From a virus (taxonomy: Duplodnaviria; Heunggongvirae; Uroviricota; Caudoviricetes): a stretch of DNA of 33,616 nucleotides. Under the pieces are notes generated by a model. It searched no databases, was not told where the DNA came from, and saw only the letters and a program-made list of their open reading frames with translations. The position numbers were made by a program, and so were the translations under genes. Location: positions 1 through 33,616 of IMG/VR virus record IMGVR_UViG_2778261222_000001; one strand, given 5' to 3'. Positions 15,618 to 25,297 of this stretch are shown piece by piece (within the stretch, counting starts at the first letter, position 1; the number at the start of each line of letters is the position of its first letter).

Positions 15618-16520
15618 TTATGCCGGGGTGGTGATGTACGGGCTGTCCACGATCTCCACATCCTTGTACCAGATGTTGGAATCGCCGCCGTTAACCAGCA
15701 TGGCGTCAATAATGAGCTTCGCGTCCGCACGGTTTTTCGGCCCCACCACAAGGGTGGTCGGGCGGATGCCCAGTGGTTCACCGTTGGTACCCTTCATGCC
15801 CCGCAGCAACTCATTGGCTTTTTTGTAGTTCTCCACCGTCAGTGCCGCACGGGAACCGACGGCGGTCTGCCAGAAGCCGAAGCCTGCATTACAGCGACCG
15901 TCCACCCCGTACAGGAATTCGTTATTCTTGAAGGTGTGCTCGCTGTTCAGATCGTCCAGGGCTTCAAACTTAAAGGCGCGTCGCGTCTGCCAGATAATGG
16001 GTTTCAGTACCTGCGACTCATCAATCAGGAACCACGGCTCACCCTTGTCTGATGCCGGGGTGCCGACAACGTTGCTGTACGTGCCGTCACCCAGCGGGTG
16101 GTCTTCATCAAAGAAGTTCTGGCCGTCAAAGCACAAAGTTTTGAATCCGGCACACAGCAGGGCGTAACACAGCTTGTCCGGGAACACGGCTGTCATACGT
16201 CCATAGCGTTCAGCAGTAATGCTGTACTGACCAATCTGGTCATCTTCAATGTGTTCGCGCTTAACGCGAATGGAACTTTCCCAGAGTTTGTTGGTGATGG
16301 TGTAACCATAACCGTCCAGCGTTGCCAGCTGACGCTCACCGACCCATTCTTTGATGTCCGGTAAATCTTTCATCCAGCCGTAGGTGTTGGAGGCTGACGA
16401 ACTCGGCACCTCAGAAGCAATGCGATTCCACTGCGGTTCGACACCACTCAGTCCACGGGTAAAGGCGGCGCTCAGGCAGGTGGTCAGTGCATGAAGGATT
16501 TCGGAATTGACTGCTCCCAT
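15618..16520 (-). CDS. Major capsid protein (Mu T-like)
   Basis: 300 aa; follows the protease/scaffold gene with a TGATG overlap. Confidence 0.8.
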   Translation of the reverse strand: MGAVNSEILHALTTCLSAAFTRGLSGVEPQWNRIASEVPSSSASNTYGWMKDLPDIKEWVGERQLATLDGYGYTITNKLWESSIRVKREHIEDDQIGQYSITAERYGRMTAVFPDKLCYALLCAGFKTLCFDGQNFFDEDHPLGDGTYSNVVGTPASDKGEPWFLIDESQVLKPIIWQTRRAFKFEALDDLNSEHTFKNNEFLYGVDGRCNAGFGFWQTAVGSRAALTVENYKKANELLRGMKGTNGEPLGIRPTTLVVGPKNRADAKLIIDAMLVNGGDSNIWYKDVEIVDSPYITTPA

Positions 16521-17482
16521 CAGTTATTCTCCTGTTTTGGTTTAGCGGCGAGGAACTCTTCCCCGGTAATACCCATGCTGCGACACATCGCCAGTTCGGC
16601 GTCGGTCAGTGTCTCCGCGGGTTTATCCTTGCCCTGGCTGGGCTTGTCGTTGTTCACCAGCGGCTGTGTGCCTTTGGTGTATTCCGCAAACTGTTTGCGG
16701 CCTTCTTCCGTGCGGCAGGTGGCAAGGAACATGTCACGGTTTGCCGGGGCCACTTTTCCGGCTTCGATGGCCGCATCCACAAGCGCCCCGGCTTCCTTCT
16801 CTTCCAGTTGCTGAAGGCGTTTTTCTGCGGTTTCGGCACGGTTCAGTGCCAGATTGTGGGTTTCCACCGGCACAAACTTCGTCAGATCAGGTGTCTGTGC
16901 GCGGTTCAGCGCCACCTGTTCGTTCTCCTGAAGTTGTTTAATGGCAGCCACGGTATCGTCCACCGTGGCGGATTCAGCCAGCCCAAGCAGGCCGGTGATT
17001 TGCACAGGTACTGTCATCGGGTTTTTCTCCGTATTCAGTGCAGGAAAATCCAGGTTAGGTTTGTTGGTCAGCCCGACGCTGGACAGGCGCGTCACCACAC
17101 CGTCTGCGTCAAAGAAAAACGCCGGGCTGTAATAGCGGTAGCGACGCTCACTCAGCATCCACCGGGCGTACTCGCTCCAGACAACACGGCCTTCAATGGT
17201 GCCGCCATCCGTCACCCGCAGTTCTTCCACCCAGCCATACGCCGGGGCTTCATCACCGCGTTGCCCTTTAATTTCGGTGGCATGTTCAATGTCCACCGGA
17301 ATTTTGATGTCGGACGAACGGGCGATCACCTCATGCGGATTGCGGTTAATCCACGTCCGTCCATCGCGCCCGGTAAACTCACCCGCAGGGACGAGCTCAA
17401 GCCATTCCGGCAGTTGAGCAGGTGTCAGCTCAGGGATGGGTTCTGGCAGGGAAAAACACAGCGCCAGCAGTTCCGGTTGCAT
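16520..17482 (-). CDS. Prohead protease / scaffold protein (Mu I-like)
   Basis: 320 aa with a coiled-coil C-terminal half; GGAG Shine-Dalgarno 7 nt upstream of the ATG at 17480-17482. Confidence 0.75.
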   Translation of the reverse strand: MQPELLALCFSLPEPIPELTPAQLPEWLELVPAGEFTGRDGRTWINRNPHEVIARSSDIKIPVDIEHATEIKGQRGDEAPAYGWVEELRVTDGGTIEGRVVWSEYARWMLSERRYRYYSPAFFFDADGVVTRLSSVGLTNKPNLDFPALNTEKNPMTVPVQITGLLGLAESATVDDTVAAIKQLQENEQVALNRAQTPDLTKFVPVETHNLALNRAETAEKRLQQLEEKEAGALVDAAIEAGKVAPANRDMFLATCRTEEGRKQFAEYTKGTQPLVNNDKPSQGKDKPAETLTDAELAMCRSMGITGEEFLAAKPKQENN

Positions 17483-17530
17483 GTCAGTCTCCGTCGTTTG
17501 GGGTTACCGACGGTCAGTATGCGGAAGGCA

Positions 17531-17556
17531 GAAAAAAAGCCGGATTTACCGGCTTC
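17531..17556 (-). terminator. Rho-independent terminator (minus strand), copy 1 of a repeated element
   Basis: On the minus strand: 7-bp stem aagccgg, loop taaat, stem ccggctt, followed by seven T; lies between the F-like gene and the protease gene. Confidence 0.6.
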
Positions 17557-17695
17557 ACTGAAAACAGGGAAATACCCCCTTCAAAACCACTTCAAAAACG
17601 CCACAGCACCTTCAAAAAAGTCAGAATGCACATTCACGCCATCAGAATAAAAAACGCGATTCTGGTGCGTTTCAGGGGGATTTACGGCGGGAGGG

Positions 17696-18460
17696 TTACT
17701 CACTGTCAAAACGGGCCTGTTTTGTCGCCAGCTGGCGCGCCAGCTCCTGCTCACGGTTTATGCCGGGATTGTAGTTCCAGCCCGGATCAATCCCTTCCGG
17801 CACATCTTCCTCTTCGCCCGTACGTTTGTTCACCCAGCGGACAGTTCTAATTTCCGGCGCTTCGGTGTGAATGGTGCCCTGTGCCGCCAGTTGTGCATAT
17901 TCACCACGGCTGACCTGACGGATGGTGCATTTGCAGCCCCAGCCGTTAGGGGCAAAATGCGTCTGCCAGAACGGATGATCTACCGGCAGACACAGACGCG
18001 CCCATTTCACATGCTCCGCCCGGTGCTCGCGGGATGGCCCCAGCTCATAAATCAGATACGGCATGGCCCGCTTTGTCCGCTGAATGCGTTCCCACTGGCC
18101 CGCCGCGCGGGCGGTGCGCATGTTGGTGTCAAAAATCGTGCGGAGGCGGCGGTCGCTGCCCAGCTGTACGGTGCGCCTTTCACCCGTCAGCGGATCATCC
18201 ATCTCCTGAACGCCCCACCATCCGCGTTTTATCAGCAGCGGTTGCAGCGCCTCCCGGAACTCGCTGAACGTCTGCCCGCTTTGCAGGGCGTCTTCCACAA
18301 GGGCTTTCACATCCGACAACAAATCCAGTTGCAGCATTTTTGCCACGGTGAAGCTGTTCCGGTGCTCTTCCCGCCACACATCCCGGTAATCAAAACCGGG
18401 GCGCAGCTTCTTCGCCTTCAGCCACGCCAGCGCCTCTTTCGGGATGAGAGTTTCACGCAT
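17696..18460 (-). CDS. Head morphogenesis protein (Mu F-like)
   Basis: Position after the portal gene; likely start is the ATG at 18458-18460 with GGGGGA Shine-Dalgarno (track ORF extends to 18517). Confidence 0.65.
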   Translation of the reverse strand: MRETLIPKEALAWLKAKKLRPGFDYRDVWREEHRNSFTVAKMLQLDLLSDVKALVEDALQSGQTFSEFREALQPLLIKRGWWGVQEMDDPLTGERRTVQLGSDRRLRTIFDTNMRTARAAGQWERIQRTKRAMPYLIYELGPSREHRAEHVKWARLCLPVDHPFWQTHFAPNGWGCKCTIRQVSRGEYAQLAAQGTIHTEAPEIRTVRWVNKRTGEEEDVPEGIDPGWNYNPGINREQELARQLATKQARFDSE

Positions 18461-25196: not shown

Positions 25197-25250
25197 AAAA
25201 GCACCTGTGAAGCAGATTTAAACGTGGTCTGCTTCATGGTGCCGGAGGCA

Positions 25251-25276
25251 TAAAAAAAGCCGGATTTACCGGCTTC
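25251..25276 (-). terminator. Rho-independent terminator (minus strand), copy 2 of the repeated element
   Basis: Same aaaaaaagccggatttaccggcttca sequence as at 17531-17556; hairpin plus seven T on the minus strand, between the moron and lys. Confidence 0.6.
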
Positions 25277-25297
25277 ATTGAATATCAGGTTATTGGC

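Follow-up and report, generated by a model that had tools for sequence, protein, structure and literature searches.

The F-protease I interval and its repeats

The window analysed here is a stretch of 33,616 nucleotides that carries the gene set of a Mu-like transposable phage, as judged from Pfam and from the PGAP annotation of an E. coli prophage with 97.7% identity. Genes for Ner, transposase, MuB, Gam, gp16, a Mor-family protein, lysozyme, terminase and portal were identified, together with those for F, protease I, capsid T, the tail proteins, Com and Mom. The prophage also encodes a TraR/DksA protein in addition to the Mor-family protein. All long ORFs of the window are on the minus strand. 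The stop codon of the F-like gene (17698-17696) and the start of the protease I gene enclose a non-coding interval of 213 bp (17483-17695), and a short array of direct repeats lies within it, 96 nt upstream of the protease I start codon, with a terminator-like hairpin and its T7 run (17556-17532) on the downstream side. Measured in the annotated E. coli homologue, the distance from the repressor end to the array is about 47% of the prophage. In near-full-length related contigs (n=40, 30-37 kb) it is found at a median of 46.8% from the nearer end. A central non-coding position upstream of protease I is also that of the strong gyrase site (SGS) of Mu-type phages.

The repeated sequence CTTCAAAA occurs three times in the whole window when both strands are searched, and all three exact copies belong to the array, with start-to-start distances of 11 and 20 bp. 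When taken on the coding (minus) strand the repeat units are longer than CTTCAAAA and the array reads TTTTTTGAAG-N11-TTTTTGAAG-N3-TTTTGAAG; the units are called R1, R2 and R3 here, and the spacer between R2 and R3 is TGG. Coordinates of all features are collected in Table 1. The earlier note had described three direct repeats, spaced by roughly one and two helical turns, in the non-coding DNA between the F-like gene and the terminator. Repeats, spacing and location are all as it said, its coordinates being 0-2 bases off. The total of three copies is unremarkable for a window of this kind (1.2 expected; three or more in 11 of 100 shuffles). What is unusual about CTTCAAAA is its clustering and not its total count. 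No other 8-mer of the window has three non-overlapping copies inside 45 bp, and when the window was simulated 400 times with a first-order Markov model, a cluster of this type, for any 8-mer, appeared only twice.

Table 1. Features in and around the F-protease I interval (window coordinates; the gyrase-motif scale is counted on the coding strand from position 0)
Feature	Position	Strand	Remarks
F-like minor head protein gene	17696..18460	minus	upstream boundary; Pfam Phage_Mu_F, E=6e-15; PGAP annotation of 97.7% identical E. coli prophage
Predicted strong gyrase site	17569..17698		-63 to +66 of the 130-bp motif, coding strand count
Predicted 4-bp staggered gyrase cleavage site	17632..17635		position homologous to Mu cuts A|AATC, T|GATT
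CTTCAAAA copies	17579-17586, 17590-17597, 17610-17617		+ strand coordinates
Repeat unit R1, TTTTTTGAAG	17610..17619	minus	+16 to +25 on the gyrase-motif scale
R1-R2 spacer, GTGCTGTGGCG	17599..17609	minus	GC-rich, 11 nt
Repeat unit R2, TTTTTGAAG	17590..17598	minus	+37 to +45
Repeat unit R3, TTTTGAAG	17579..17586	minus	+49 to +56
TATTT	17570..17574	minus	+61 to +65; fourth AT-rich phase prolonging the array
43-nt block, hairpin GCCGG-TAAAT-CCGGC + T7 run	17520..17562	minus	outside the gyrase site
Mu-like protease I gene	16520..17482	minus	downstream boundary; Pfam Mu-like_Pro, E=5e-44

The hairpin downstream of the array belongs to a block of 43 nt, and a second copy of this block, which is a direct repeat with 91% identity, is present upstream of lys (25240-25282, minus). 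A possible -10 sequence was noticed at each copy, CATACT (17521-17516) at protease I and CACCAT (25241-25236) at lys. The 43-nt element is probably a terminator and/or the site of a late-promoter activator. In Shewanella phage MuM16-2 the sequence GAGCAACCGNCGTTAWTTAWTC is common to the lys and I upstream regions, the lys copy being without the 3' half of the hairpin. At another place in the window, upstream of the com/mom genes on the minus strand (about 907-930), there is a near-perfect GATC-rich palindrome, CGATCGATAT-CATC-ATATCGATCG, followed by ATTATgattaaATAT and a CCCAG-CCCT-CTGGG dyad. The mom promoter of Mu, which is under the control of Dam/OxyR and C, is similarly arranged.

Conservation and variation of the array

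A protease-alignment scan of viral contigs gave 80 relatives (47-98% identity) and each of them (80/80) has the array upstream of I. The earlier note had looked to related prophages for a check of its reading, and the homologous intergenic region carries the array in every relative examined. Three units are present in the F-I interval of a Brenneria salicis prophage, Klebsiella phage Kp4866-3, Shewanella phage MuM16-2 and Vibrio phage martha, where the layout is R1-N11..13-R2-N3-R3 and the unit is TTTAAAC or TTTGAAC, not TTTGAAG. The proteases of the Shewanella and Vibrio phages are only 44-48% identical to that of the window, yet the layout is kept. A scan of genome contigs with the protease gave a single locus, in Brenneria, and a DNA search of the phage collection found no intergenic homologues. 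Of 5,426 complete E. coli genomes, about 46 contain a prophage of this family. A nhmmer profile built from five relatives picked up the array of the window at E=7.4 only, which is not significant (9.9-bit bias correction). A pattern derived from the relatives only, TTTTTRAACNNNKWTTRAAC, has a single match in the window with up to two mismatches, and this match is at the array (0.05 expected).

More than 33 distinct versions of the array exist among the 80 viral-contig loci. Constant features are 3-6 consecutive T before R-A-A-S, a two-turn and then a one-turn spacing, and GC-rich spacers; on the sequences compared, constraint is on the sequence class and the spacing. When eight E. coli variants were aligned, the three units were found to be invariant and the flanks variable. 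Within the R1-R2 spacer the 3' part GTGGCG is invariant and the 5' part variable; spacers equivalent to that of the window in relatives are, for example, GCGCCACGGCG and GTTTCTGTGCG. Substitutions in the eight variants cluster in this 5' part and in the predicted gyrase cleavage core, which is the most variable intergenic stretch among close E. coli variants. At 17621-17632 of the window (minus TGTGCATTCTGA) the variant cores are GTGCATTCTGAC, GTACACCCTGGC, GTATACCCTCAC and GCACACTCTGGC, and an alternating pyrimidine-purine pattern is kept in their first seven bases.

It was also considered that the units evolve in a concerted manner, AAAC changing to GAAG in all three along with a co-evolving sequence-specific protein. 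The survey of 80 loci disposed of this idea by turning up many arrays of mixed units (AAAC/GAAC/GAAC, AAAC/GAAC/AAAC, AAAC/AAAC/GAAC, AAAC/AAAG/AAAC and some that end in AAAT). Since the units vary singly (AAAC, GAAC, GAAG, AAAG, AAAT), the seeming concerted change came from too small a sample.

Seven loci (L161, L164, L165, L169, L178, L179 and L181) have an additional ORF of about 110-130 codons, which is inserted about 10 nt after R3 and separates the array from the hairpin element close to I. In these loci the array is 458-479 nt away from I and still has the upstream core beside F, and the hairpin element GGAAAGCGGTTAATCC keeps adjoining I. The array thus goes with the core and not with the I promoter. 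The same insertion junction has been used by at least three different inserted sequences in the seven loci.

Among more divergent Mu-like phages, an exact-pattern scan located the units in the G-I gap or in the gap upstream of I (L087, L073). In three GC-rich phages of the Mu-like type (L027, L062 and L095) it occupies the F-I gap and is inverted relative to the genes, and in L056 and L081 it is inverted upstream of F. Thus, the orientation of the array with respect to transcription is not conserved in distant Mu-like phages. In the Klebsiella/Brenneria group (L003 15878-15889, L002 2327-2338 and most of L155-L211) the sequence TG(T/G)G(A/G)TACGATG is present about 25 nt upstream of the array. 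It coincides with the predicted gyrase core and fits an extended -10 promoter (TGnTACGAT) as well; in the window this position is taken by TGATGGCGT. The upstream half of the site in the Klebsiella/Brenneria group may have a second or a different function.

Relation of the array to the strong gyrase site of phage Mu

[quoted passage not shown] The left arm of the site can be dispensed with and the right arm is essential; repeat motifs in the right arm bend the DNA over a long range (PMC10052514). A cryo-EM structure of gyrase with Mu217 shows the right arm wrapped around a GyrA C-terminal domain, AT repeats facing the protein via the minor groove and GC repeats facing outward; the two scissile bonds are A|A and, on the opposite strand, T|GATTT (PMC11626157). 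The essential right arm, its bending repeats and its wrapping on the GyrA C-terminal domain are backed by PMC13284261 jointly with these two publications. A fragment of 133 bp (17812-17944 of Mu) has served as the Mu SGS in gyrase assays, and the genome-wide E. coli gyrase motif spans 130 bp with arms that have an AT/GC periodicity of 10.75 bp (Sutormin et al. 2019, PMC6379681).

The gyrase cut of Mu is annotated in GenBank at 17879/17880, between G and I. Starting 11 nt to the right of the cut, Mu reads TTTTTTAAAAC-gcgccacggga-TTTTTAAAC-cgg-TATTTAAC, so the layout TTTTTTAAAAC-N11-TTTTTAAAC-N3-TATTTAAC is that of the window array. In the alignment R1 corresponds to TTTTTTAAAAC (+15 to +25), R2 to TTTTTAAAC and R3 to TATTTAAC. 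The homologous array of Mu (17891-17932) is inside the mapped SGS, where it forms one arm of the assayed fragment, and the annotated late promoter is downstream of it (17977-18043). The Mu protease is only about 25% identical to that of the window (tblastn), yet the array layout is kept. A Mu-type prophage of E. coli SE11, whose I and F are 98% and 95% identical to those of Mu, provides the bridge that makes the homology between Mu and the window explicit at the sequence level. It has a Mu-like core, ATAAAATCA, followed by TTTTTGAAG-N11-TTTTTGAAG-N3-TTTTGAAG, and its array is 95.7% identical to the window array over 46 bp with unrelated flanks. A single ungapped alignment anchored on R2 lines up the window, Mu, SE11, Kp4866-3, Brenneria, Shewanella and Vibrio. 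From this alignment and from the match of the relatives-only pattern, the window has the R1-N11-R2-N3-R3 set of phased AT-rich units that is found in the right arm of a Mu-type SGS.

The resemblance to the Mu SGS covers the position immediately before protease gene I in the middle of a transposable phage, the three T-tract/A units in the order R1-N11-R2-N3-R3 at the same distance from the cut (here a predicted one), the GC-rich spacers, and a coincidence of the AT phases with the gyrase wrapping motif, which is partial in the window. On the other hand, there are differences. The unit is TTTTGAAG in the window and TTTTAAAC in Mu. The cut-site cores read GGCGT|GAAT|GTGC (predicted) in the window and CATAA|AATC|AGCC in Mu, and the window core is not recognisably similar to ATAAAATC of Mu. 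Beyond about +75 the window has the hairpin/promoter element in place of the distal right arm of Mu. The upstream flanking gene is F in the window and G in Mu, because the G homologue of the window has moved behind the capsid gene.

A further comparison is offered by O157:H7. The SGS of the Sakai Sp18 prophage is reportedly the only heterologous site that supported Mu replication; none of the remaining sites placed at the Mu centre, among them candidates taken from further Mu-like prophages, gave such support (Oram & Pato 2004, summarised in PMC10052514). Resemblance in sequence is thus no guarantee of strong activity. The array was read from a strain with a Sakai Sp18-type prophage, not from the published construct, and the G-I gap there contains TTTTCTAAC-ctg-TATTTAAC-ggg-CTTTAAAAT. 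As in the window, three units are found upstream of I, here in the G-I gap, but the unit sequences differ and all the O157:H7 units are 11 bp apart with no two-turn gap, in contrast to the 11 and 20 bp of the window. The O157:H7 Mu-like prophage also has a PGAP feature 'tRNA-OTHER' on the opposite strand between F and G (L217 1157-1237).

The scissile bonds in the cryo-EM structure place position 0 of the gyrase motif at 17876 of Mu, so that R2 of Mu starts at +37. Moving this register to the window without gaps puts position 0 at 17635 on the coding strand, and the predicted site then takes up nearly all of the DNA between the F stop codon and the hairpin. Cutting is predicted at T|GAAT on the minus strand (17636|17635) and at C|ATTC on the plus strand (17631|17632); the cleavage position is uncertain and could be off by a few bp or by one helical turn. 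The Topo-seq consensus for E. coli gyrase has its right-arm AT phases at +19-22, +31, +39-41, +49-53 and +61-64. The AT part of R1 falls over +19 to +22, R2 over +39 to +41, R3 over +49 to +53 and TATTT over +61 to +64, which would explain the one-turn and two-turn spacing noticed in the earlier note. On the left side TAA, TAAAT, TGAAA, AGAAT and TTTTTTATT fall on most of the consensus AT phases. Taken together, AT-rich stretches of the window are at about -62, -48, -37, -28, -18, +20, +40, +51 and +62 from the predicted cut, in partial agreement with the genome-wide motif (PMC6379681). The AT content at consensus-W and consensus-S positions is 67% and 47% in the window and 79% and 48% in Mu.

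A crude AT/GC template, which uses the published Topo-seq consensus pattern only and is not a weight matrix, was run as well. In the Mu control it peaked exactly at 17876 (z=3.6, rank 6 of 36,585). At the homology register of the window it gave z=2.6-2.7 (99.6-99.7th percentile), and the best local peak was at 17621, 11 bp from this register, with a rank of about 33 in the window. SE11, Kp4866-3, Brenneria and Shewanella gave z=2.7-3.5 within 1 nt of the predicted register, and the Vibrio phage only 1.4 with an offset of 3. Fourier power at 10-11 bp reaches only about the 99th percentile, both in the window and in Mu's own site. Template and Fourier periodicity are weak discriminators and were therefore taken only as a check of the register, for which the template scores are supportive but not strong. 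Apart from the homology, the evidence is statistically modest.

Mu-type phages have, in addition, a two-unit copy of the motif with 11-bp spacing in the DNA that separates attL from the repressor gene, about 200 bp inward of the left end. This copy has the opposite orientation to the central array. Its coordinates are 35783-35803 in L001 (the prophage family of the window, outside the window itself), 204-222 in Mu (L011) and 407-425 in L007, and it reads CTTCAAAAatgCTTCAAAAA in the family of the window and CTTCAAAAAACGTTCAAAACCG in Mu. We know of no described function for this copy.

Readings of the array and its probable role

The repeats are functional-looking, and on the basis of the sequence comparisons they probably represent phased AT-rich bending signals in the right arm of a Mu-type SGS at the prophage centre. 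The general idea of the earlier note, a helically phased array that binds a protein, holds as far as the phasing and the conservation are concerned; its two specific proposals, a late regulator or an RNA element, are not supported. The late-transcription regulator (Mor/C-like or TraR-like) was thought to act on the protease/capsid promoter. The prophage does code for candidates of both kinds, helical phasing would suit cooperative binding, and the array stands close upstream of I in the interval that holds the late promoter P_I in Mu (AF083977). The C-dependent late promoters of Mu (P_lys, P_I, P_P and P_mom) are related to the array in that P_I shares its intergenic region, being annotated between the SGS and gene I. 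However, no copy of the motif was found upstream of lys (25197-25297) or com (860-954), even with one mismatch allowed, and what the lys and I upstream regions share is the 43-nt hairpin element, which is likely to be the promoter element of this prophage as a block separate from the repeats. In Mu the homologous array is upstream of the annotated late promoter and within the mapped SGS, and in the seven relatives with the extra ORF it is separated from I by some 460 nt while the hairpin element stays at I, so its position relative to the promoter is not fixed as in a Mor/C late-promoter element. Mor/C proteins are described as binding dyad-symmetric sites, not direct repeats. A late regulator is therefore highly improbable as the ligand. 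Slightly less probable still is an RNA-level element, either in the F 3' UTR or as an sRNA that ends at the hairpin, with the repeats as sites for an RNA-binding protein. The repeats are on the coding strand and are followed by a hairpin that looks like a strong intrinsic terminator, an extended -10-like sequence lies upstream of the array in the Klebsiella/Brenneria group, and Rfam gave a weak match to sroD (E=0.14). The sroD match reaches 20.7 bits, the gathering score being 50, and Rfam had no match above threshold; the fold of the RNA is no better than that of shuffles (z-score -1.6) with the repeats unpaired in the centroid, so that neither Rfam nor folding assigns a structured cis-regulatory RNA or sRNA to the locus. 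Moreover, the -10-like motif is not conserved in the window, the distance between array and hairpin ranges from 22 to more than 130 nt (about 400 nt with the inserted ORF), and in three distant Mu-like phages the array runs against transcription.

That the array is a non-functional remnant of local duplication or slippage is the least credible possibility. Short tandem-like repeats can arise through slippage, and two unrelated viral contigs have tandem 11-bp TTTTGAAGGGN arrays (L051 from 637 onward and L100 at about 1010-1060, at least four copies, no Mu-like gene detected), which may be iterons or another phased element. The layout is conserved, however, from E. coli to the Shewanella and Vibrio phages and Mu in spite of the divergence of their proteases, the array is present in all 80 relatives, and the units are invariant where the flanks vary; as far as sequence comparison goes, the remnant reading is already contradicted by these data. 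More weight, though still little, can be given to phased bent DNA or a site for nucleoid proteins (Fis, IHF, HU) or MuB that organises the prophage domain and is not a gyrase site, a reading that we consider unlikely. The Mu domain is known to depend on IHF, Fis, HU, MuB and the L end in addition to the SGS (PMC3820752), phased T-tracts are intrinsically curved, and the two-unit copy at the left end of Mu-type phages, including the prophage family of the window, keeps this possibility alive. [quoted passage not shown] A role for nucleoid proteins or MuB is less economical than a gyrase site.

For the SGS, then, the protein bound is most likely host DNA gyrase, acting via the GyrA C-terminal domain, as we infer from the analogy with Mu. 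Gyrase would bind with its cleavage core at about 17632-17635 and the DNA on the I-gene side would wrap around a GyrA C-terminal domain. The T-tract/GAA units are at about +20, +40, +51 and +62, and thus their narrow minor grooves would face the protein and the GC-rich spacers would be turned outward. The wrapped arm could then serve as the transported (T) segment, giving strong and processive supercoiling, and supercoiling from the prophage centre would draw the phage ends together for transposase synapsis and replicative transposition. A more speculative and rather doubtful extension is that the T-tract/RAAS units form a specific recognition module, for the blades of the GyrA C-terminal domain or for another phage or host protein, which is used at the centre as three units and at the left end as the inverted two-unit copy and physically couples the SGS to the L end. 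If this is true, the coupling might account for the dependence of the Mu prophage domain on the L end and not on the R end.

For the biology of Mu itself an array of the SGS type is expected and not surprising. What the present analysis adds is a name for an unannotated and strictly conserved non-coding element of a Mu-like prophage family, found in E. coli and in phages of Klebsiella, Brenneria, Shewanella and Vibrio, and it guards against mistaking the array for a late-gene operator. Strong gyrase sites are already in use for raising plasmid supercoiling. The more than 33 arrays, with a constant layout and variable units, amount to a natural mutagenesis series of SGS right arms, and such a series could guide the design and the prediction of strong gyrase sites.
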